20,000 nucleotides of DNA, taken from the IMG/VR virus record IMGVR_UViG_3300029319_005559. The stretch is one strand, 5' to 3'. This DNA is from an uncultured virus (IMG/VR IMGVR_UViG_3300029319_005559). Its lineage: Duplodnaviria > Heunggongvirae > Uroviricota > Caudoviricetes. Numbering within the stretch: the stretch's first letter is position 1; each line of letters starts with the position of its first letter. Positions 3,079 to 19,998 of this stretch are shown piece after piece. A program made the translations under genes and the position numbers. The notes beneath the pieces are model-generated. The model made no database searches and was not told the DNA's origin. It was given only the letters and a program-made list of their open reading frames with translations.

Positions 3079-3246
3079 ATGAAAGTAACGACTACATACC
3101 CTCACAAACAAATCAAGTTAACTCAGATAACTGAATATACTTTAGATGAAAAAGCCTTCTTCATCAACGAGTGTGAGGGTCGAGAAGTGTGGTCAACAGT
3201 AGAAGGAAAATATCAACGAGTAATAGAGATAAAAGACTATGATTAA
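3079..3246 (+). CDS. Hypothetical protein (55 aa)
   Basis: MKVTTTYPHKQIKLTQITEYTLDEKAFFINECEGREVWSTVEGKYQRVIEIKDYD*; abuts both neighbours. Confidence 0.6.
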   Translation: MKVTTTYPHKQIKLTQITEYTLDEKAFFINECEGREVWSTVEGKYQRVIEIKDYD

Positions 3247-3544
3247 AATAATTGACACTAAATTCAGTGTATACAGCGAAGTAAAACTAGTCGGTATGGC
3301 AGATATCGAACAAGATGGTGAAGACTTCAGAACTTATTTATCACTAAGATATCCACCTGATGAAGAGTATCGTAGATACAAAGGTGCGTTCTTTAGTGAT
3401 CTCGACAGTGCTATGAAGTGGTGTCGTGAACAATTAACGCAAGAAAACTTGCAACACATATATGAAAGAGAGCAAATAGCTAATCAAGCTATGGCAGAGT
3501 TTTACTCACAAGAAAATAGATCTAAATATTTATACAATGAATGA
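3239..3544 (+). CDS. Hypothetical protein (101 aa)
   Basis: ORF track; tightly packed. Confidence 0.8.
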   Translation: MIKIIDTKFSVYSEVKLVGMADIEQDGEDFRTYLSLRYPPDEEYRRYKGAFFSDLDSAMKWCREQLTQENLQHIYEREQIANQAMAEFYSQENRSKYLYNE

Positions 3545-3674
3545 AGAAGTATGGAGATCAATAGAAAAAGTTAGATGGTTGCAAACAAGAGAACTAGCTA
3601 ACAAATACCCTAATGACGCAGAGTTAGGTGCTGCAGTAAGAGATCTAATAAGAAAAACACCTGAAACGATATGA
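3537..3674 (+). CDS. Small phage protein (45 aa) with a KYPNDAELGAAVR motif
   Basis: My translation MNEEVWRSIEKVRWLQTRELANKYPNDAELGAAVRDLIRKTPETI*; overlapping start/stop on both sides. Confidence 0.65.
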   Translation: MNEEVWRSIEKVRWLQTRELANKYPNDAELGAAVRDLIRKTPETI

Positions 3675-3913
3675 AAAAGTTAATATTATTACTAGCATTA
3701 ACTAGTTGCACTACTAAAAATAAGATATATTATTCTACTAACGTAGATAAGTGTATTCACAATTTAAATGAAATGCAAAGATGGTTACAGCAAGACTATG
3801 CGAATGGTGACATACCTGAACATGTAGCTAATAACTATATGATAGTAATTATAAATACTAAATGTTCTTTATCTAAAAAGTATGGCAAGAAGACGGAAGA
3901 TTGTGTTGACTAA
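3671..3913 (+). CDS. Putative lipoprotein (80 aa), paralogue of 1948..2175
   Basis: MKKLILLLALTS-C: basic N-terminus, hydrophobic core and lipobox-like LTSC. Confidence 0.75.
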   Translation: MKKLILLLALTSCTTKNKIYYSTNVDKCIHNLNEMQRWLQQDYANGDIPEHVANNYMIVIINTKCSLSKKYGKKTEDCVD

Positions 3914-4505
3914 AAAATGGAGTGACTACATAGATCTTCATAAAAATAGAGATTTTATAATATGTGGCAGAGGTAGGTCATTACAACTTTTAAAAGACAC
4001 TAATTCTATACTTATTGGTGTAAATGACATAGAGAAATATAGATCTGTAGATTATTTAGTTGTAGTTGATAGAATAGCTCAATTTACAAGAGAAAATAGA
4101 CACGAAGAAATATTAAACACTAAATCAAACACTTTCTTTACTCAAATAGATGAGTATGCAGTCGGTTATTCTAATTTCAATTACGATAAAGTATGTAAAA
4201 TAAACATAAAGAATATTAGACAAGATCATCAAATAGATAAAAATATTTGCTACGCAAGTAATAACTCAACATTTATAGCATGTAGCATAGCAATAAATAT
4301 GGGTGCTAGAAATATAGGTATTATAGGTGTAGACATAACAGGTCACAAGAGTTTAGCAAGTGAAAACTCTTTAAAAAAGATAAATAGAGATTATAGTATA
4401 TTAAATAACTTACATAAAATATACAATTTATCACCAATAAGTAAAATAGAAGCATTAGAAAGTATTAGTATTGACGACTTTCACAAATTAAATACGAATG
4501 AGTAA
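3882..4505 (+). CDS. DUF115/MptE-like (Maf / CST-I sialyltransferase-like Rossmann-fold) transferase
   Basis: Motifs IICGRGRSL, IGVND, DYLVVVD and AINMGARNIGIIGVD. The true start may be GTG 3903 or TTG 3906. Confidence 0.65.
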   Translation: MARRRKIVLTKKWSDYIDLHKNRDFIICGRGRSLQLLKDTNSILIGVNDIEKYRSVDYLVVVDRIAQFTRENRHEEILNTKSNTFFTQIDEYAVGYSNFNYDKVCKINIKNIRQDHQIDKNICYASNNSTFIACSIAINMGARNIGIIGVDITGHKSLASENSLKKINRDYSILNNLHKIYNLSPISKIEALESISIDDFHKLNTNE

Positions 4506-5855: not shown

Positions 5856-6053
5856 ATGGGAAATATGAGTTACTGCAGGTTTGAAAACACTGCAAATGAT
5901 TTAGCAGACTGTGTGTCTGCACTAATGAGAAACGAAACTGAAGATCTAAACCATTATGAATTAAACGGATTAGCAAGAATATTAGAATATGCTAATGACA
6001 TTGTAGATATGGAAGATTATATAAACGATATACTAGATGCAAATGAAGACTAG
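5856..6053 (+). CDS. Small acidic phage protein (MGNMSYCRFENT-type N-terminus)
   Basis: ORF track; the NMSYCRFENT..DL.DC motif is one I recall from other phage hypothetical proteins. Confidence 0.8.
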   Translation: MGNMSYCRFENTANDLADCVSALMRNETEDLNHYELNGLARILEYANDIVDMEDYINDILDANED

Positions 6054-6375
6054 AACAATGAACGAACTTAGGCAAGAGAAAACTTATGGTTATAAAGCAC
6101 CATTTGGTATGACTCACAAAGAAGAAAAACCAAAAGGTTATTCAGAGATTGATATAGAAACTACTAAGGACCTGATATTCAACAGCTTAAAGAATAAGTT
6201 TTACGATATGATATTTCAAGCAGTATGCGATGAAATGTCAAAGCATGAAGTGTTTCAAGAAGAAACTTATTTTACACCGCAAGGTATGGATGAGTTTGAA
6301 GATCAATGGTTTGAGTTTTATCACGAGCATCATGGTGATATACTAGGTTCTATAATGAAAGATTTTACAAACTAA
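6037..6375 (+). CDS. Hypothetical protein with an acidic C-terminal half (up to 112 aa; start may be 6043)
   Basis: ORF track; stop lies inside motif copy 7. Confidence 0.8.
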   Translation: MQMKTRTMNELRQEKTYGYKAPFGMTHKEEKPKGYSEIDIETTKDLIFNSLKNKFYDMIFQAVCDEMSKHEVFQEETYFTPQGMDEFEDQWFEFYHEHHGDILGSIMKDFTN

Positions 6376-6397
6376 ATACGAACACTAATAGATAATA
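6366..6397 (+). promoter_or_regulatory. Class I promoter-like motif, copy 7
   Basis: TACAA ACTAAATACG AACACTAATA GATAATA. Confidence 0.85.
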
Positions 6398-6402
6398 ATA
6401 TT

Positions 6403-6600
6403 ATGAAAAAATTTAATAAAATGGAGTCTAATCTTATATGTGATGCACTTGACTATTACGTTATACAATTAGAAGCTGACATAAAAGCTCTAGAAGAAAG
6501 CGGCAAAACATCTATATTTGCACCTGGGTTTTACCCAATGATAAAAGATGAACTAGTAGCCAAGATCAAAAAAGATATGACTAAAAAACAAACCTTTTAA
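6403..6600 (+). CDS. Hypothetical protein (65 aa)
   Basis: ORF track; ATG 6 nt after motif copy 7. Confidence 0.8.
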   Translation: MKKFNKMESNLICDALDYYVIQLEADIKALEESGKTSIFAPGFYPMIKDELVAKIKKDMTKKQTF

Positions 6601-6612
6601 TACCTTAACCAA

Positions 6613-6741
6613 ATGGCAATATGGAATGAAATACAAGAGCAGTTGAAAGAGTTGCAACAGCTACTTGATGAAAGAAAACAACTCGACCAAATATATAACC
6701 AATTAAAAAACCAACATGACGGAATCACAGATCCTAAGTAA
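6613..6741 (+). CDS. Short coiled-coil peptide (42 aa)
   Basis: MAIWNEIQEQLKELQQLLDERKQLDQIYNQLKNQHDGITDPK*. Confidence 0.5.
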   Translation: MAIWNEIQEQLKELQQLLDERKQLDQIYNQLKNQHDGITDPK

Positions 6742-9779: not shown

Positions 9780-9858
9780 TAAAGCAGACTGGTTTATTAT
9801 ATTACTTGCTTCGGCATGTTTACTGTGGACTATTATGTTTACAATATCTATACTATGA
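9772..9858 (+). CDS. 28-aa hydrophobic peptide
   Basis: MNDKADWFIILLASACLLWTIMFTISIL*; stop overlaps ATG 9855. Confidence 0.4.
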   Translation: MNDKADWFIILLASACLLWTIMFTISIL

Positions 9859-10340
9859 ATATATTTTATTTACATAGAGATCCTGTAAAAGCTGCACAGT
9901 ACCAATACAACAAACATGTTGTTAAGATGATCTTAGAATCAGCCCAAATGCTTTGTACAGCACATCATGAAATAATGGGAGAAGATGCAAATGTACCTTA
10001 CAAACGTGCACATGTAAATCACCCATCAACTATATGGTGTAGAAGCTCAGCTGAAAATTATACTTGGCTTTATGATCACTTTTGTGCTTTATCTGAAGAA
10101 TATACTAAACGTTACGGTAAAGTACATTTGTCATATACAAAGTGTGATCCTTATTTAAGATATTTACCTGGTGGATTGCCATACACAGGATTTACACAAC
10201 CACCTCAGGCTATGCCTGATGAATATAAAGATACATGTAGTGTTCAAGCATATTGGAATTATTACATAGGTGATAAGTTTAACATAGCTCACAAAGATGA
10301 AACAATTTATAAAACTAGGCCGTTGTGTGCGGCATCGTAG
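9855..10340 (+). CDS. Pyrimidine-dimer DNA glycosylase / endonuclease V (DenV)-family protein
   Basis: MNIFYL...KHVVKMILESAQML...YKRAHVNHPSTIW...HLSY...PPQAMPD signature; start moved to the MNIF ATG. Confidence 0.8.
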   Translation: MNIFYLHRDPVKAAQYQYNKHVVKMILESAQMLCTAHHEIMGEDANVPYKRAHVNHPSTIWCRSSAENYTWLYDHFCALSEEYTKRYGKVHLSYTKCDPYLRYLPGGLPYTGFTQPPQAMPDEYKDTCSVQAYWNYYIGDKFNIAHKDETIYKTRPLCAAS

Positions 10341-13577: not shown

Positions 13578-15302
13578 ATGCAAGTCGAAGAAATAGAAAT
13601 AAATGGTTTTCAAATAGACCAATTTAATCAGCACGGCTTAGACGTAGGTAAATCGCAGGGGACTTGTCCCCTGTGTTCTTCTTCTAGGAAACCTGAGAAT
13701 AGAAAAGCAAAGTGTGCTAGCTATGATTGGGAACGTGGTCTTGGTACTTGCCATAACTGTGATAGTACTTTTCAACTACACACATACAAACGTAAAGGTA
13801 AAGCTGAACGTGAGTATGTTATACCACCTGAGCTTAATTCTCAGAAAATTAGTAATAAGCCAAAAGACAAAACATTAGATTGGTTTAAAACTAGAGGTAT
13901 ATCTAAAGATACGTTAGATGAACTAAAAGTTAGTGTAGGTAAAGAATATATGCCACAGACCGGTAAAACCGAGAATACTATTCAGTTCAACTATTATGTT
14001 GGTGGACAACTTACTAATATAAAATACCGTGATGCGCGTAAAAACTTTAAGTTATATAAAGGCGCTGAAAAAGTATTTTATAACATAGATAACATTGTAG
14101 GTCACGATACTTGTATTATAGTTGAAGGCGAAATGGATGTGTTAGCTTTACATGAAGCTAATATACCTAACGCTATATCAGTACCTAATGGTGCTACATT
14201 AAACAGTAACAACTTAGATTATTTAGATAATTGCATTGACTACTTTGAAGATAAGAAAAAGATAATCATTGCAGTTGATAATGATCCACCAGGTCAAGCG
14301 CTACAAGCAGAACTTGTACGTAGACTAGGTGCTGAAACCTGTTACTTAGCTACATTTGATGATTGTAAAGATGCTAATGAGTATCTATTAAAGTACTCAG
14401 CTAAAGAGCTATTGTCACGTATAACAAATGCAAAACCAGTACCTCTTGAAAATGTTACAACGTTTAGAGATATTGAAGATGAGGTTACTGACTTTGTACG
14501 TAATGGTTTTAAGAAAGGTTTTCAAATAGGTTTATCTAACTTTGACAACATATTCTCTACATACACAGGACAATTTATAACAGTAACTGGTATACCTAGT
14601 TCAGGTAAATCGGACTTTGTAGATCAAATGGTTGTAGGTTATAATAAAGAGTATGGTTGGAAAACAGCATTTGCTTCACCTGAAAATGCTCCTACATATT
14701 TACACGCACATAAGTTAATGCGTAAAGTATGGGGTGACATGCCTAACAAAGGCGATATCGGCGGTGACAAATGGAATAAAGTTGCAGATCATGTTAACAA
14801 CAACTTTTTCTTTATTGATATGGAACGTTATACACTTGAGTCTGTACTACGTAAGGGTGCAGAGCTTGTAAAGCGTAAAGGTATTAAATGCCTTGTTATA
14901 GATCCATTTAATAAAGTTAGAGATGTTGACTGCTCTACTGAAGATGTAAACCGTTACACAATGGAATACTTAACAAAGATAGAAACGTTTGCAAAGAAAT
15001 ATGATGTGTTAGTATTTATAGTGGCTCATCCAACTAAAATGTATAAAAACAGTGAAGGCCAAATTGAAGAGCCTACAATGTACAATATTAAAGGTGGTGG
15101 TGAATGGTACGATGCTAGTTATCATGGCTTGTTAGTACATAGAGACTATGAAGCTAAAACAACAAAGGTTAAAGTTCTTAAAGTTAAGTTTCAAAACTTA
15201 GGTGAGAACGGAGCCGAAGCTTTCTTTACATGGGAACCTAGATCAGGTTGCTTTGTACCTCATGTCATGCCTGACTTAGAGGAAAAGATGCCATGGGAAT
15301 AA
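13578..15302 (+). CDS. Bifunctional primase-helicase (T7 gp4/Twinkle-like)
   Basis: Zn finger CPLC...CHNC; TOPRIM IVEGEMD and AVDND; DCKDANE; Walker A TGIPSSGKS; Walker B LVIDP; VAHP; KVKF. Confidence 0.95.
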   Translation: MQVEEIEINGFQIDQFNQHGLDVGKSQGTCPLCSSSRKPENRKAKCASYDWERGLGTCHNCDSTFQLHTYKRKGKAEREYVIPPELNSQKISNKPKDKTLDWFKTRGISKDTLDELKVSVGKEYMPQTGKTENTIQFNYYVGGQLTNIKYRDARKNFKLYKGAEKVFYNIDNIVGHDTCIIVEGEMDVLALHEANIPNAISVPNGATLNSNNLDYLDNCIDYFEDKKKIIIAVDNDPPGQALQAELVRRLGAETCYLATFDDCKDANEYLLKYSAKELLSRITNAKPVPLENVTTFRDIEDEVTDFVRNGFKKGFQIGLSNFDNIFSTYTGQFITVTGIPSSGKSDFVDQMVVGYNKEYGWKTAFASPENAPTYLHAHKLMRKVWGDMPNKGDIGGDKWNKVADHVNNNFFFIDMERYTLESVLRKGAELVKRKGIKCLVIDPFNKVRDVDCSTEDVNRYTMEYLTKIETFAKKYDVLVFIVAHPTKMYKNSEGQIEEPTMYNIKGGGEWYDASYHGLLVHRDYEAKTTKVKVLKVKFQNLGENGAEAFFTWEPRSGCFVPHVMPDLEEKMPWE

Positions 15303-15553
15303 AAAAGAAAGTAGAATGGAAAGCGCCATACTGGAGTAAATCAAATAGACAAGCTTATGTTTGGTGTGTTAACCATGGAATTAAAATATACGCCGTGCCT
15401 TGTTCACCAGGTTTTGAAAATAAAAACTGTTGGATAGAAGTTCAGGCAAACGGTAGAAAACAACGTAGTCCTAAGACGTATGGACCAAGTGAACTATGGG
15501 ATAAAGTCTTAGAGTTATATAAATTTTATTATGATAAAAACGTGGATAAATAA
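15293..15553 (+). CDS. Hypothetical protein (86 aa)
   Basis: ORF track; overlaps both neighbours. Confidence 0.75.
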   Translation: MGIKKKVEWKAPYWSKSNRQAYVWCVNHGIKIYAVPCSPGFENKNCWIEVQANGRKQRSPKTYGPSELWDKVLELYKFYYDKNVDK

Positions 15554-16238
15554 ATTTAGAAATGCAGACTATGCTTTTGATTATTGGTATCAAACAATAG
15601 AAAGATATGGCATAGACTTTGCAGGTACTAAAGCTTTATTTAATATTGGATTTGAAATGACACATCCAATGGAAAGATCTATATCATCTGAATACAGAGG
15701 TTGGCGGCAAGACTATGCGTTTGCGGAGTGGGAATGGTATTTATCAGGTGATCGTAACATTAAAAAGCTAGGTGAATTATATGGTAAAGTTCCTGAAATA
15801 TGGAAATATATGGCAGATGATCACGGTAATGTTAACTCTAATTATGGTTGGCAGTGGAATAGAATGTATCAACTAGATTATGTTATAGACAGATTAAAAT
15901 CTGATAAAGATACAAGACAAGCTACAATATCTATTTACGATGGTAAAGAACATCCTTTGTATCATAAAGATACACCATGCACATACGCAATACAATTCAC
16001 AGTTGTAGATGATAGATTACATATGTGCGTCACGATGCGATCTAATGATCTCTGGTACGGTTTCTGCAATGATCAATACTGTTTTAGTCAACTGCAAGAA
16101 CTGGTTGCATCAGAGACAGATTATGAAATAGGTTCATACTTTCATTTTGCACATAACCTACATTTATATGAAAGAGATTTAGGTAAGTTTAAAAGACCAG
16201 ATAACATCGCACAACGTAAAGCAGATCACTATGGATAA
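15531..16238 (+). CDS. Thymidylate synthase-superfamily enzyme, T4 gp42 dCMP hydroxymethylase-like
   Basis: EWEWY, IW..MA...G.VNSNYGW, DTRQA, catalytic PCT, and MRSNDLWYGFCND with Asp at the ThyA Asn177 position; HNLHLY. Confidence 0.85.
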   Translation: MIKTWINKFRNADYAFDYWYQTIERYGIDFAGTKALFNIGFEMTHPMERSISSEYRGWRQDYAFAEWEWYLSGDRNIKKLGELYGKVPEIWKYMADDHGNVNSNYGWQWNRMYQLDYVIDRLKSDKDTRQATISIYDGKEHPLYHKDTPCTYAIQFTVVDDRLHMCVTMRSNDLWYGFCNDQYCFSQLQELVASETDYEIGSYFHFAHNLHLYERDLGKFKRPDNIAQRKADHYG

Positions 16239-17055
16239 TTTAACATATTATTTGTATCACATACCAGGTAAAAAGATAGGTGTTACACGTGATCTTAATA
16301 ACAGAGTTACACAACAACAGGGTTATAGCCCAGACGAATACGAAGTTCTAGATCAAAGCACAGACATCGATTATATATCGAGCCGCGAGTTAGAACTTCA
16401 AAAGTCTTATGGCTATAGGGTAGACCACAAACCTTATAAACAATTATTTAAAATGAAGATAAACGCAACAGAACAAACCAGCACATTTCCAGTTCCATTA
16501 AACAAGTTAAAAGGTAGATTAATGGATGAAATTGGTAGATCATGGGAAACAATACATGGCAAGTTTGAATTAACTAAAGATACGATTAAATGGATTGTAG
16601 ATAATGCTAAGACATCTATGTATAGTGAAAACAGATCTTATATATACAATAAAGCATTTTATGAAGAGTTCTTAAATGAAGCTAAGAAAGAAGCTAAATT
16701 GTTTTATGATCAACTTAAAGAAAGAGTTAACAATAATAATGGTAAAACAGAGTTTCACACTGAAAATAGATTTGATCTTATAAGAAAATGGGCTACTGAA
16801 AGAGGATTATATAAAGGCGGTGATACTAAAACTCAGTTCGCTAAACTAGTAGAAGAAACTGGTGAATTAGCTCAAGCTATACTTAAAAAAGATGATGCAG
16901 AGTTTGCAGATGCTATCGGTGATATGGTAGTTGTATTAACTAACCTAGCTCATTTAGGTGGAACAACTATTGAGCAATGTATAGATCAAGCTTACAATGA
17001 GATTAAAAACCGTAAAGGTAAAATGTCTAATGGAACATTCGTTAAAAATGACTAA
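16231..17055 (+). CDS. Fusion of an N-terminal GIY-YIG-like domain, a central domain and a C-terminal MazG-like NTP pyrophosphohydrolase
   Basis: N-terminus: YYLYHIPGKKIGVT.DLNNR...RELELQ. C-terminus: WATERGL...KLVEETGELA...DAIGDMVVVL...AYNEIKNRKG. Confidence 0.8.
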   Translation: MDNLTYYLYHIPGKKIGVTRDLNNRVTQQQGYSPDEYEVLDQSTDIDYISSRELELQKSYGYRVDHKPYKQLFKMKINATEQTSTFPVPLNKLKGRLMDEIGRSWETIHGKFELTKDTIKWIVDNAKTSMYSENRSYIYNKAFYEEFLNEAKKEAKLFYDQLKERVNNNNGKTEFHTENRFDLIRKWATERGLYKGGDTKTQFAKLVEETGELAQAILKKDDAEFADAIGDMVVVLTNLAHLGGTTIEQCIDQAYNEIKNRKGKMSNGTFVKND

Positions 17056-17335
17056 GAAAGAAATAAAATTTAGAGATCCTGTAGTTGAAAGAGTTGTAGA
17101 TAAGTTTGTTACAAGATCAGATGTTGGCTATAAAAAATATGGACAAACATTAGACAACGAACGTAAAACAAAAGTTAAAGATCTTTCTGATTATTTAAAT
17201 GATATACAAGAAGAATTAATGGATGCAATACTTTATATTCAAGCTGCACGTGAAGAGTTGGCTGAAGCTAAAGATCGTGTATACGATAATAAGTTAAATG
17301 GTTTACCATATTATGTCTCGGACATTGCGTCGTAA
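17048..17335 (+). CDS. All-alpha nucleotide pyrophosphatase-like protein (95 aa; start moved to ATG 17048)
   Basis: RSDVGYKKYGQTLD...LNDIQEELMDAILY, an EExxD metal-binding pattern. Confidence 0.65.
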   Translation: MTKKEIKFRDPVVERVVDKFVTRSDVGYKKYGQTLDNERKTKVKDLSDYLNDIQEELMDAILYIQAAREELAEAKDRVYDNKLNGLPYYVSDIAS

Positions 17336-17762
17336 ACGTGGTCCGGTTAGATCTAAAAAAGTAACTTACGATGGTATAACCTTTCAATCAGGATTAGAAA
17401 AGTATATGTACATAGCTTTAAAGAAAGCTAAGATCAAAGCTAAATATGAGGGACAATCTTACGAGCTTGTCCCTTCTTTTTCCTTTAAAAATAAATCATA
17501 TGAAAGACAAGCAAATTCAAAAGGAGAATTTAAAGAAAGAGGTGGAAAGAAAATTAGAGCTATTACGTATACACCAGACTTTATTGGAGACGGATTTATC
17601 ATCGAGTGTAAAGGAAGACCTAACGAATCATTTCCAATACGTTGGAAACTATTTAAACGTTTGGTATCTATACATTATCCGAAAGTTACGATCTATAAAC
17701 CTCAAAATCAAAAAGAATGCGACGAAACCGTGAGCTTAATACTTGGGAAAAGAAAGACTTAG
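17313..17762 (+). CDS. T7 endonuclease I-like PD-(D/E)XK nuclease (junction resolvase-like)
   Basis: FQSGLE, YTPDF, IIECKG; start probably ATG 17313. Confidence 0.8.
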   Translation: MSRTLRRKRGPVRSKKVTYDGITFQSGLEKYMYIALKKAKIKAKYEGQSYELVPSFSFKNKSYERQANSKGEFKERGGKKIRAITYTPDFIGDGFIIECKGRPNESFPIRWKLFKRLVSIHYPKVTIYKPQNQKECDETVSLILGKRKT

Positions 17763-17878
17763 CCAGACGTAAATATGCTGAGCGACAACTTGAAAAGTTT
17801 ATTAAATGGAGTATTGAATCTAAAGGATATTTAAAATACAAAGACTTAATAGAATACAGTAACAAATATAAAATATGA
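17717..17878 (+). CDS. Small basic protein (53 aa)
   Basis: MRRNRELNTWEKKDLARRKYAERQLEKFIKWSIESKGYLKYKDLIEYSNKYKI*; stop overlaps ATG 17875. Confidence 0.55.
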   Translation: MRRNRELNTWEKKDLARRKYAERQLEKFIKWSIESKGYLKYKDLIEYSNKYKI

Positions 17879-18543
17879 AACCTACTATAATAATTCCATC
17901 TTATAACTTTAAAAAAGGATTAGACTGGAACTTAAATTTTATAGACATTTGCTATGATATTTTGTTTAAAGATTTTTATTGTATAGTTGTAGATAATATG
18001 TCTGAAGAAGTAGAAGATATATTTGAATTAACAGAACAGTTTGATTGGTGTGATTTTAAAATAAATAAAACAAAAGGTTCTTTAAAAAACTCTTTATTAA
18101 TAGGATATGAATATGCTAAAGCAAATAACTCAGATGCTATACAAATTATAGAAACAGATGCGGTTATGAATTTAAATTCATTAAAAGCAATGATTAATAT
18201 TTTTGAAGAAGAAAAAGAAAATAACTTAGCTTCAGTCACTCCAATGTATAAATGGAATAATAAGTATTGTTATCCAACACATAAGCATTGGCATACAGAT
18301 CCTATATACAAGCAACATGATAAATACGGTTTGATTAGAGAGACAGCAGCAGGAGTTCCTTTTCTTTGTTCATTTTGGAATATAGATATGTTTAAATATA
18401 TGCCTGAAGTTTCTAAAGAGTTTATGAGTTGTGATGGAGAGTTTGGCCAATTAGTTTACAAAAAAGGATTTAAACATTTAAGAGCTTGTGATCATGACAT
18501 ACAGCATTATATGAGAGGTAAAAATAGTAATAATATTTTTTAA
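17875..18543 (+). CDS. GT-A fold (GT2-like) glycosyltransferase
   Basis: TIIIPSYN, IVVDNMS, GYEYA, IIETDA (DxD-equivalent ExD), late CDGEF and H.I.H. Confidence 0.75.
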   Translation: MKPTIIIPSYNFKKGLDWNLNFIDICYDILFKDFYCIVVDNMSEEVEDIFELTEQFDWCDFKINKTKGSLKNSLLIGYEYAKANNSDAIQIIETDAVMNLNSLKAMINIFEEEKENNLASVTPMYKWNNKYCYPTHKHWHTDPIYKQHDKYGLIRETAAGVPFLCSFWNIDMFKYMPEVSKEFMSCDGEFGQLVYKKGFKHLRACDHDIQHYMRGKNSNNIF

Positions 18544-18761
18544 TGAAAGAGTCAACATTATTAGAAATGAAAAAGAAAATTGAATCACTAACTAATGTGG
18601 TTCAAGCATTGATAAATGAAACAAATAACTTAAGAACATTATCAATGGGTACATTACAAACAATAAAGCTTATGCCTGATTACGAGGAAGCTTTAGGTAA
18701 ATTAAAAGAACAATTAAAAAAAGAGGAAGCAAATGGAGTTGTCAAACAAGATTCTAAGTGA
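18543..18761 (+). CDS. Small coiled-coil hypothetical protein (72 aa)
   Basis: ORF track; TAATG coupling to the upstream gene. Confidence 0.75.
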   Translation: MKESTLLEMKKKIESLTNVVQALINETNNLRTLSMGTLQTIKLMPDYEEALGKLKEQLKKEEANGVVKQDSK

Positions 18762-19998
18762 TATAACCGTTTATATGAAGTACGCCAAGTACATACCAGA
18801 AAATAACCGAAGAGAAACTTGGGAAGAACTTGTGACGCGTAATAAAAATATGCATATCAAGAAATACCCAGAACTTACTGATCAAATAGAAAAAGCTTAT
18901 GAACTTGTCTACGATAAAAAAGTTTTACCGTCTATGCGTTCGCTACAATTTGGTGGCAAACCTATTGAAATATCTCCTAATCGCGTATACAATTGTGCGT
19001 ATCTACCAATCGACGACCCTGAATCGTTTAATGAAATCATGTTTCTTTTACTTGGAGGGACAGGCGTAGGTTACTCAGTACAACATCATCATGTTGCTAA
19101 GTTACCTCCTGTTAACAAACCATATACAAAAAGAACTAGAAGATTTTTAATTGGTGATAGTATTGAAGGTTGGGCAGATGCTATTAAAGTGTTAATGAAG
19201 TCTTATATGGGTGAAAGACGATCAAGTAAAGTTGTGTTTGATTACTCAGACATAAGAGCTAAAGGAGCTTTATTAGTTACATCAGGCGGTAAAGCACCAG
19301 GACCTCAACCATTAAAAGAATGCATAGTAAAAATAACAGGAATACTAGACAACAAAGAAGACGGAGATCAACTTACGACTTTGGAAACGCACGACATAGT
19401 GTGTCATATAGCAGATGCAGTATTAGCAGGTGGAATAAGACGAGCAGCATTAATAAGTTTGTTCTCGGCGGATGACGATGCAATGATTGGTTGTAAGTCA
19501 GGTCATTGGTGGGAAGAAGCACCACAACGTGGTAGAGCTAATAACTCTGCTGTACTTATGAGACATAAAATTACCAAAGACTTTTTTATGGATCTTTGGA
19601 AACGTGTAGAGCTATCAGGCGCAGGTGAACCTGGTATTTATCTTAATAATGATAAAGACTGGGGTACAAATCCTTGTTGTGAAATAGCTTTACGACCATA
19701 CCAGTTTTGTAATCTATGTGAGGTAAACGCTAGTGATATTGAATCACAAGAAGACTTTAACAACAGGGTTAAAATTGCTTCATTTATAGGTACATTACAA
19801 GCTGGATATACAGATTTTCATTATTTAAGAGACATATGGAGAGAGACAACAGAAAAAGACGCATTGATTGGGGTCAGTATGACGGGCATAGGATCAGGCA
19901 CAGTTCTAGGTTACGATCTGAAGAAAGCAGCAAGCGTAGTAAAAAGAGAAAACACAAGGGTAGCAAAACTGATTGGGATTAATCCAGCAGCTAGATGT
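18733..19998 (+). CDS. nrdJ: Class II (adenosylcobalamin-dependent) ribonucleotide reductase, 3'-truncated by the window edge
   Basis: My translation from ATG 18733: MELSNKILSDITVYMKYAKY...RRETW...LPSMRSLQFGG...YNCAY...GGTGVGYS...SGGKAPGP...AGGIRRAALISL...RANNS...GEPG...GTNPCCEI...FCNLCEVN; open to the end. Confidence 0.92.
   Translation, partial: MELSNKILSDITVYMKYAKYIPENNRRETWEELVTRNKNMHIKKYPELTDQIEKAYELVYDKKVLPSMRSLQFGGKPIEISPNRVYNCAYLPIDDPESFNEIMFLLLGGTGVGYSVQHHHVAKLPPVNKPYTKRTRRFLIGDSIEGWADAIKVLMKSYMGERRSSKVVFDYSDIRAKGALLVTSGGKAPGPQPLKECIVKITGILDNKEDGDQLTTLETHDIVCHIADAVLAGGIRRAALISLFSADDDAMIGCKSGHWWEEAPQRGRANNSAVLMRHKITKDFFMDLWKRVELSGAGEPGIYLNNDKDWGTNPCCEIALRPYQFCNLCEVNASDIESQEDFNNRVKIASFIGTLQAGYTDFHYLRDIWRETTEKDALIGVSMTGIGSGTVLGYDLKKAASVVKRENTRVAKLIGINPAARC

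Follow-up and report, generated by a model that had tools for sequence, protein, structure and literature searches.

A gp42-like thymidylate synthase homolog and a fused MazG-type protein form a conserved, predicted cytosine-modification block in marine phages

Thymidylate synthase (TS) homologs that modify cytosine nucleotides have already been described from phage T4, from Xanthomonas phage Xp12, from metaviromes surveyed by MetaGPA (PMC8670742; bioRxiv 10.1101/2024.12.05.627091), and from phages RB69, DLP3, and RL38JI (PMC13326640). Here, we compare these systems with a four-gene block in a 20,000-nt stretch of DNA from an uncultured member of the Caudoviricetes (IMG/VR record IMGVR_UViG_3300029319_005559); this whole stretch is referred to as the window. 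The block encodes a TS homolog, a fusion protein with a MazG domain (gene 2), a small protein (gene 3), and a DUF1064 protein. From the residues, predicted folds, and conservation of these proteins, we consider it fairly probable that the block joins gp42-like dCMP hydroxymethylation to a MazG cassette, with cytosine probably replaced by 5-hydroxymethylcytosine.

A few residues, numbered here as in Escherichia coli ThyA, distinguish the described enzymes. Asp at position 177 selects dCMP (PMC13326640; PMC8670742), and positions 177 and 147 are the best at telling viral contigs with modified cytosine from unmodified ones (PMC8670742). An acidic residue at position 143, present in the T4-like 5-hydroxymethyl-dCMP synthases and in the CMP hydroxymethylase MilA, goes with hydroxymethylation and lets water in (PMC13326640). 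The mark of the flavin-dependent 5-hydroxy-dCMP synthases is D169N (Lee 2026, PMC13326640).

The TS homolog of the window matched the Pfam family Thymidylat_synt (PF00303, E = 3.1e-26) and contains the motifs DTPCTYA, MRSNDLWYGFCND, and NSNYGWQW. A HMMER alignment to T4 chain 1b49 set the window motifs opposite SDFMCTNT, MRSNDVVFGFRND, and NSNYGWAIW, and MAFFT alignments set them opposite LAPCH and QRSCDVFLGLPFN of E. coli ThyA (the T4 gp42, E. coli ThyA, and Xp12 sequences used are public records). Based on these alignments, ThyA L143, H147, and N177 are Asp, Thr, and Asp in the window, as in T4: L143 corresponds to window Asp147 (KDTPC) and gp42 Asp (SDFMC), H147 to Thr151 and Thr, and N177 to Asp181 (GFCND) and Asp (GFRND). 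ThyA D169 corresponds to window Asp173 (MRSND) and is likewise Asp in gp42, and the catalytic residue, ThyA C146, corresponds to window Cys150, which is invariant in the alignments and is also Cys in gp42. As in T4, the C-terminal tail of ThyA is absent, and the window protein ends approximately 25 residues after HLY. In ThyA, hydride transfer involves closure of the C-terminus over the folate. For all this likeness in fold and key residues, the window enzyme is only 28 to 31% identical to gp42. An earlier note on this DNA, made from the sequence alone, had listed motifs that differ from ThyA and match gp42, including NSNYGW, along with a cytosine-selecting Asp at position 177. These motifs are real and correctly aligned, and the Asp is accompanied by the other gp42-type residues. 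Judged by this residue set, the protein is most likely a dCMP 5-hydroxymethylase.

The signature is fixed throughout the family. It was matched by 118 of 120 homologous proteins, the other 2 being short fragments; D143 and T147 were present in 118 of 118 and D177 in 117 of 118. At the level of loci, D169 and D177 were found in all 81 examined. Pfam, PHROGs, and public annotations call the protein a thymidylate synthase and, much as the earlier note expected of routine annotation, close homologs appear in public sources as "thymidylate synthase" or "hypothetical protein." However, an ordinary TS converting dUMP to dTMP is extremely improbable here. Asn177 and His147 are replaced, the folate-closing tail is missing, and all NCBIfam ThyA equivalog scores fell far under their cut-offs (best 75.1 bits vs 327), leaving none of these marks of a canonical ThyA in a protein whose signature does not vary.

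The window enzyme also resembles the 5-hydroxy-dCMP synthases of RB69, DLP3, and RL38JI in Asp177, in an acidic residue at 143, and in a link to DNA glycosylation clusters, but those enzymes use flavin and have Asn at position 169, whereas the window keeps Asp (PMC13326640). The earlier note had allowed for 5-hydroxymethyl-, 5-methyl-, or 5-hydroxy-dCMP as the product. We set the 5-hydroxy option aside because Asp169 is kept and the D169N mark is absent, and of the remaining two, hydroxymethyl is favored.

The best isolate match (45% identity) was to Bacteroides fragilis phages with two TS homologs approximately 2 kb apart, at 3109-3915 and 5989-6669 in Bacteroides phage BF503P2 (L001, OP172671.1), and a dUTPase gene between them. 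Both have Asp at 177 and are annotated as dCMP hydroxymethyltransferase.

The stop codon of the TS gene overlaps the start of gene 2 in ATGGATAA (16231-16238). An alignment of 25 orthologs resolved gene 2 (16231-17055) into three conserved parts and a variable linker. The N-terminal domain matched T5orf172 in 17 of the 25 orthologs, MUG113 in 14, and GIY-YIG in 2, in every case below the Pfam cut-off; these three families form one clan. When modeled using AlphaFold 2 (AF2), the domain has a beta-beta-alpha-beta-alpha topology (E6-11, E15-19, H22-29, E38-43, H46-60). Residues Y6, Y9, H10, K14, K15, G17, R25, and E53 are invariant, and all 24 full-length orthologs that were aligned have the domain with these candidate catalytic residues unchanged. 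"GIY-YIG-like" is a likely, although not proven, description of this N-terminus. The middle domain has invariant columns that include N78, T80, T83, F86, W105, G110, W121, N125, R135, Y139, and N140, and profile searches with it against Pfam and the PDB returned no match. Similarly, a profile of residues 1-150 found nothing in the PDB, and the fold-search lists for the whole of gene 2 were filled by the MazG domain.

The C-terminal domain of gene 2 matched PF03819 (E = 1.7e-7; 31.9 bits vs a cut-off of 22) and the PRA-PH family PF01503 (E = 1.9e-5, above cut-off), and the acidic motifs EExxE and DxxxD are invariant (E208, E209, E212, D227, and D231). Foldseek matched the domain with a probability of 1.00 to MazG (1vmg, 2yxh), to the mouse and human dCTPases (6sqw, 7mu5), and to the MazG-like protein of S-2L (7ody). 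The ten best rows from VIA (Z 9.1-8.1) were all of the MazG, PRA-PH, or related pyrophosphatase type, with the top match at Z 9.1, rmsd 2.2, and 81 aligned residues. In published data, 7mu5 and the related mouse structure 6sqz are tabled as matches of the RB69 and DLP3 dCTPases (PMC13326640, Table 1), and it is specifically on contigs with modified cytosine that PRA-PH is found together with TS (PMC8670742; bioRxiv 10.1101/2024.12.05.627091). The Pfam and fold matches confirm the MazG half of the GIY-YIG/MazG fusion first read from the sequence, while the other half stands as GIY-YIG-like, on sub-threshold matches plus topology. In the literature, we found nothing specific on this lineage or on a GIY-YIG-MazG fusion linked to hydroxymethylation.

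Gene 2 and gene 3 overlap by 8 nt (17048-17055). Both downstream genes had been described as overlapping and as carrying pyrophosphatase motifs; this holds for the overlaps and for gene 2, but gene 3 as a pyrophosphatase is not supported. The start proposed for gene 3 at 16997 is also probably wrong. Orthologs begin at a Met equivalent to 17048, many with stop codons just upstream, and we therefore assign gene 3 a length of 95 aa. Pfam gave no support for a pyrophosphatase in the window protein and no family at a meaningful E-value for any of 29 orthologs, and phmmer and profile searches of the PDB found no match. In the ESM Atlas, gene 3 fell into unnamed viral clusters only. Its AF2 model (pLDDT 83) consists of helices 11-31 and 46-76 and carries invariant acidic residues; the best Foldseek match had an E-value of 4.4 (Mycobacterium tuberculosis MazG, 8.1), and the best VIA match was to unrelated helices (Z 4.2). 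An hhalign comparison of gene 3 with gene 2 yielded a probability of 2.2% over 15 columns. Gene 3 resembles the second motif of MazG/HisE-type proteins only through a short QEELMDAxLY stretch, and it is a conserved partner without an assigned role.

We then compared the block across IMG/VR in 80 of the 518 loci matched through TS and in 79 loci found through gene 2, approximately 160 related contigs of marine viruses. Most of them keep the gene order TS, MazG fusion, gene 3, and DUF1064. The gene 2 MazG adjoins TS in 78 of the 80 TS-found loci, with a median gap of 9 nt; one of the others has no room, and one (L073) lacks gene 2. Among the 79 gene-2-found loci, 75 have a gp42-type TS, 1 has no room, and 3 have a ThyA-like TS. 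Gene 3 was present in 73 of 80 TS-found and 78 of 79 gene-2-found loci, and DUF1064 in 71 of 80 and 78 of 79. Four TS-found loci with room lack both, three of which are L025, L026, and L029. Locus L073, a 4.5-kb IMG/VR contig, is the sole one with downstream room that has a gp42-type TS but no match to gene 2, gene 3, or DUF1064.

In L025 (6001-7381), as well as in L026 and L029, the TS gene is followed by a dCMP deaminase gene (138 aa; PHROG 174, E = 1.9e-45) and then by a stand-alone MazG of 100 aa that lacks the N-terminal and middle domains, with neither gene 3 nor DUF1064 present. This arrangement is the published neighborhood of modified-cytosine contigs (bioRxiv 10.1101/2024.12.05.627091). 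A search of five records for dCMP deaminase found it in none of them. Three further loci carry a ThyA-like Asp177 enzyme in the TS slot (L171:4175-4999, L174:4155-4988, and L149:4088-5004). The L171 enzyme is 46% identical to E. coli ThyA and has L143, H147, and the C-terminal tail, yet has Asp177 (GLPYD); the L149 copy is frameshifted and split over three frames. These ThyA-like Asp177 enzymes are predicted dCMP methyltransferases. Because the slot always holds a cytosine-type enzyme, the cassette appears to be cytosine-directed, and the strongest internal argument for this is that the one slot takes two different cytosine-type enzymes before an unchanged set of downstream genes. This swap also suggests that the downstream genes are independent of which group is added.

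We infer the following route. The TS-fold enzyme would take dCMP rather than dUMP and transfer the methylene of 5,10-methylene-tetrahydrofolate to C5, where water would add to give 5-hydroxymethyl-dCMP, as in the T4 gp42 reaction. The MazG domain of gene 2 would convert dCTP to dCMP and pyrophosphate, thereby feeding the TS homolog and keeping unmodified dCTP out of phage DNA. The GIY-YIG-like domain might cut unmodified (host) DNA; in T4, dC-DNA is cut by a GIY-YIG enzyme, endonuclease II. Neither gene 3 nor the DUF1064 nuclease, both conserved partners, has an assigned step here. The 5-hydroxymethyl-dCMP would be phosphorylated by a host kinase or an unrecognized phage protein and then incorporated at replication. 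In the window strain, the product of an inserted family-2 glycosyltransferase gene (GT2) may glycosylate the hydroxymethyl group.

Several observations weigh against this reading. The substrate and product of the enzyme, and the modification of the DNA itself, are predictions. Sequence scores do not set gp42 clearly apart from MilA and ThyA: the best PDB match of the TS homolog was MilA (5b6d, E = 4.3e-19), followed by T4 dCMP hydroxymethylase (3.9e-17), the best true ThyA (4.5e-16), and E. coli ThyA (approximately 6e-13). PHROG 160 was the best match for all four of gp42, the Xp12 TS, the ThyA of E. coli, and the protein of the window, and PHROGs were useless as a discriminator of these enzymes (all in phrog_160). 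MilA shares Asp at 143 and 177 with the window enzyme but acts on a ribonucleotide in the Streptomyces mildiomycin pathway, whereas the window gene lies between a primase-helicase and a ribonucleotide reductase.

The position-143 rule is also not absolute. The 5-methyl-dCMP synthase of Xp12, a TS homolog used for complete cytosine replacement (bioRxiv 10.1101/2024.12.05.627091), has Asn there rather than a bulky hydrophobic residue and, like the window enzyme, has both Asp169 and Asp177. Asp177 by itself predicts dCMP use only, and five of seven deaminase-linked Asp177 enzymes made 5-methyl-dCMP (bioRxiv 10.1101/2024.12.05.627091). In the family of the window, three relatives are deaminase-linked, and three have the ThyA-like Asp177 enzyme in the TS slot. 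These points raise the prospect that the same cassette contains a dCMP methyltransferase and that the phage DNA holds 5-methylcytosine, like that of Xp12, which we regard as unlikely. The window enzyme has Asp143 and Thr147, as T4 gp42 does, in place of the Asn and Pro of Xp12; its GFCND resembles the GFRND of gp42 and not GLPYD; and it lacks the C-terminal extension of ThyA and Xp12, which is needed for hydride transfer. Closer analogs of the Xp12 enzyme are found in L171 and L174, in the form of their ThyA-like Asp177 enzymes. Xp12 further differs in having adjacent dihydrofolate reductase (DHFR) and deaminase genes. DHFR was found in none of five gp42-type and none of three ThyA-like-Asp177 records; with both types of relatives lacking it, it offers no way to tell methyl from hydroxymethyl. 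Given the Asn143, Pro147, GLPYD, and ThyA-like tail of the Xp12 methylase, hydroxymethylation is favored over methylation for the window enzyme, although it is not proven.

Further points on the same side concern the remainder of the pathway. With hhalign, no similarity between the gene 2 profile and T4 gp56 could be detected (probability, 1.4%). The specificity of a MazG domain is not readable from its sequence, its fold matches include the mouse and human dCTPases but also MazG enzymes of other specificity, and dCTP is the presumed substrate. In T4, gp1 is needed to phosphorylate 5-hydroxymethyl-dCMP. We found no P-loop (Walker-A) kinase motif outside the primase-helicase in the window, in relative G001 (98% complete), or in relative G005, and neither a kinase family nor a DNA polymerase came up when G001 was scanned with PHROG and Pfam. 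None of five related records, three of which are at least 98% complete, yielded a DNA polymerase of family A or B. The same scans recognized no terminase in G001 either, which points to limited sensitivity, and divergent proteins may be missed. Finally, MazG/PRA-PH and DUF1064 genes occur in the replication modules of Elemovirus and Cellulophaga phage phi10:1, where the 15-kb stretches examined have no annotated TS.

This last observation, together with the kinase and polymerase results, would fit a TS homolog that modifies dCMP while its neighbors lie outside any base-substitution pathway. The MazG domain would then serve the general nucleotide pool or anti-defense, the GIY-YIG-like domain would be a remnant of a homing endonuclease, much as the T4 homing endonuclease gene segF merely adjoins gene 56, and the modification would be partial or its product destined for salvage. 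L073, with TS but without gene 2 despite having room, points the same way. We consider this explanation improbable. TS and gene 2 sit side by side in 78 of 80 and 78 of 79 loci, the stop codon of one overlapping the start codon of the other; the N-terminal domain retains invariant candidate catalytic residues in all 24 orthologs aligned, unlike a decaying homing endonuclease; and gene 2 has no more than remote similarity to the MazG proteins of Elemovirus and phi10:1 (E of approximately 0.004 over 40-50 residues). Published association data also tie PRA-PH and TS to modified contigs (PMC8670742). The gp42-like dCMP hydroxymethylation reading remains the one that we prefer.

Compared with T4, the window likewise has an all-alpha NTP pyrophosphatase in the same genome (gp56 dCTPase in T4) and a glycosyltransferase near the TS gene, as the T4 beta-gt gene adjoins gene 42. 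The differences are that the window pyrophosphatase is of the MazG/PRA-PH type, is fused to two other domains, and has no detectable similarity to gp56; that no dNMP kinase (T4 gp1) or DNA polymerase was detected; and that the glycosyltransferase is a strain-specific GT-A enzyme of family 2. The T4 alpha- and beta-glucosyltransferases have a GT-B fold. In T4 (L091, 607-1786), segF, a GIY-YIG gene, lies directly beside gene 56, which echoes the GIY-YIG-like/MazG fusion.

The contigs described by MetaGPA, which combine TS(Asp177), PRA-PH, and dCMP deaminase, share with the window a PF00303 protein with Asp177 and a non-His residue at 147 beside PF01503/PF03819, as well as a coastal or marine viral origin, and three relatives of the window have the deaminase too (PMC8670742; bioRxiv 10.1101/2024.12.05.627091). 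The window differs from these published contigs in the extra N-terminal and middle domains of its pyrophosphatase, and most members of its family are without a deaminase. The novelty claimed in the earlier note was overstated, since TS(Asp177) with PRA-PH and deaminase on modified-cytosine contigs from sewage and coastal viromes is already in print (PMC8670742; bioRxiv 10.1101/2024.12.05.627091). The features most worth taking to the bench are the fused three-domain protein, the swap between hydroxymethyl and methyl writers, and the accessory GT-A glycosyltransferase. Coordinates are collected in Table 1.

Table 1. Features of the block and its surroundings in the window
Feature	Coordinates	Strand	Basis
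Small conserved gene, 86 aa, function unassigned	15293..15553	+	ORF; PHROG 5945 (unknown function), E 1.2e-5
TS-fold enzyme, predicted dCMP C5-hydroxymethylase, 235 aa	15531..16238	+	PF00303 and gp42-like residues
Gene 2, residues 1-70, GIY-YIG-like (T5orf172/MUG113-like) domain	16231..16440	+	Sub-threshold Pfam matches and predicted topology
Gene 2, residues 75-147, strongly conserved middle domain, no family	16453..16671	+	Conservation
Gene 2, residues 179-274, MazG-type all-alpha NTP pyrophosphohydrolase, candidate dCTPase	16765..17055	+	Pfam and fold
Gene 3, 95 aa, conserved acidic helical hairpin, function unassigned	17048..17335	+	Start revised from orthologs
DUF1064 nuclease-like protein (probable resolvase), conserved, closing the block	17298..17762	+	PF06356, E 4.1e-12; PHROG 190 "Holliday junction resolvase," E 5e-15
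Family-2 GT-A glycosyltransferase, strain-specific accessory, candidate modified-cytosine glycosylase	17875..18543	+	PF00535 and fold

The GT2 gene lies just downstream of the block. Its match to PF00535 was just under the cut-off (E = 1.6e-4; 22.1 bits vs 23.3), close homologs carry PF00535, and its ESM Atlas structure aligned to GT2 clusters with TM scores of 0.77-0.80. The gene is a precise 705-bp insertion (17857-18561); the closest relative, G005, has 18 bp at this site. It was present in none of the 80 TS-found and none of the 79 gene-2-found loci, and as a single query in IMG/VR it gave no pattern match. In metagenome runs, a contig skipping 17844-18561 was found in two of four runs (X6 and X9). 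One contig of run X2 bridges the gene (17703-18960), and the other three runs have pieces on parts of it.

Only two distant GT2 relatives were found in IMG/VR, both in clusters of five to six glycosyltransferases, one of which also has sugar-modifying genes. Both contigs carry a TS with D143, T147, D169, and D177 beside an ATP-grasp gene, approximately 9 kb from the glycosyltransferase cluster. With n = 2, this link between GT2 relatives and the gp42-type TS is a lead, not a result. L175 and L176 (records G006 and G007; CheckV completeness, 28% and 17%) are probably large phages in which a gp42-type TS stands beside an ATP-grasp enzyme, with a cluster of GT2, RgpF-like, and GT92 glycosyltransferases approximately 9 kb away. 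The cluster additionally contains a cupin gene in L175 and genes for a DegT-type aminotransferase and a PglD-like acetyltransferase in L176. It is a candidate for complex cytosine hypermodification.

The gap between the 53-aa and 72-aa ORFs (window 17857-18561) is an insertion hot spot, occupied by GT2 in the window, and other occupants were observed in L004/L005, L011, L059, and L063. In L004/L005, the occupant is a 187-aa protein matching PHROG 1644 and, weakly, DUF6445; in L011, it is a proline-rich protein of TonB-C-like appearance by eye. In loci that lack the class II ribonucleotide reductase (RNR), an apparent class I RNR small subunit, again recognized by eye, occupies the site.

The window has a GC content of approximately 0.32, with all phage genes on one strand. 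Upstream of the block run genes for an ATP-dependent DNA ligase, a sigma-like factor, Erf, an exonuclease, and a T7-type primase-helicase (13578-15302); the block follows the primase-helicase and is itself followed by a class II RNR gene that is incomplete at the window end. We best explain the window as the replication module of a marine phage that has Flavobacterium and Cellulophaga podophages among its relatives, with the four genes as a translationally coupled block. The end of the small 86-aa gene overlaps the TS start by 23 nt, and tblastn found relatives of this gene in some related loci (34 of 79). DUF1064 is also present in Elemovirus, with no TS nearby.

The isolates nearest by primase-helicase and portal, Cellulophaga phages and Flavobacterium (Elemovirus) phages, are 33-48% identical. 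A Bacteroidota host is therefore likely, in line with the earlier note's probable assignment to a Bacteroidota-infecting lineage. Near-identical DNA, with at least one third of the sampled words, was detected in marine metagenomes (14 runs from at least 8 studies), one of which is possibly the source sample. These runs consist of assembled contigs, which cannot show base modification. RNA runs showed small shares only (0.05-0.16), which carry no weight.

Several other genes were observed in the window and its relatives. A 207-aa ORF (window 3882-4505) has a weak MptE-like/DUF115 match (PF01973, E = 5.3e-5, below cut-off) and no homolog in the 98%-complete relative G001; it is possibly a second strain-specific transferase-like gene. 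A 174-aa ORF (9816-10340), found in some relatives only, matched Pyr_excise (pyrimidine dimer DNA glycosylase; E = 6e-6) and PHROG 624 (E = 4.2e-52). The 63.5-kb relative G001 (loci L082-L085) encodes GroEL-like and GroES-like proteins, and a 2988-aa ORF lies in its structural arm.

A broader view can be drawn from these features, although we hold it to be doubtful. A widespread lineage of marine Flavobacteriia phages would replace cytosine without a DNA polymerase or recognizable dNMP kinase of its own, using a writer slot that is either hydroxymethylating (gp42-like) or methylating (ThyA-like Asp177). Gene 2 would be a three-in-one exclusion protein, in which the GIY-YIG domain cuts dC-DNA, MazG acts as the dCTPase, and the middle domain serves as a kinase or in DNA recognition, with gene 3 as a partner. 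The GT-A enzyme would represent a new family of hydroxymethylcytosine DNA glycosyltransferases.

If gp42-like dCMP hydroxymethylation is indeed encoded by this block, the annotation of the gene would change, as it would not be a thyA. The lineage would offer a natural swap of hydroxymethyl-type and methyl-type enzymes in one slot, and its compact fused pyrophosphatase and small GT-A may be useful enzymes. Abundant marine Bacteroidota phages would carry hydroxymethylated and, in some strains, glycosylated cytosine, which would affect their recovery by sequencing and restriction-based methods and bear on their escape from host restriction and CRISPR.

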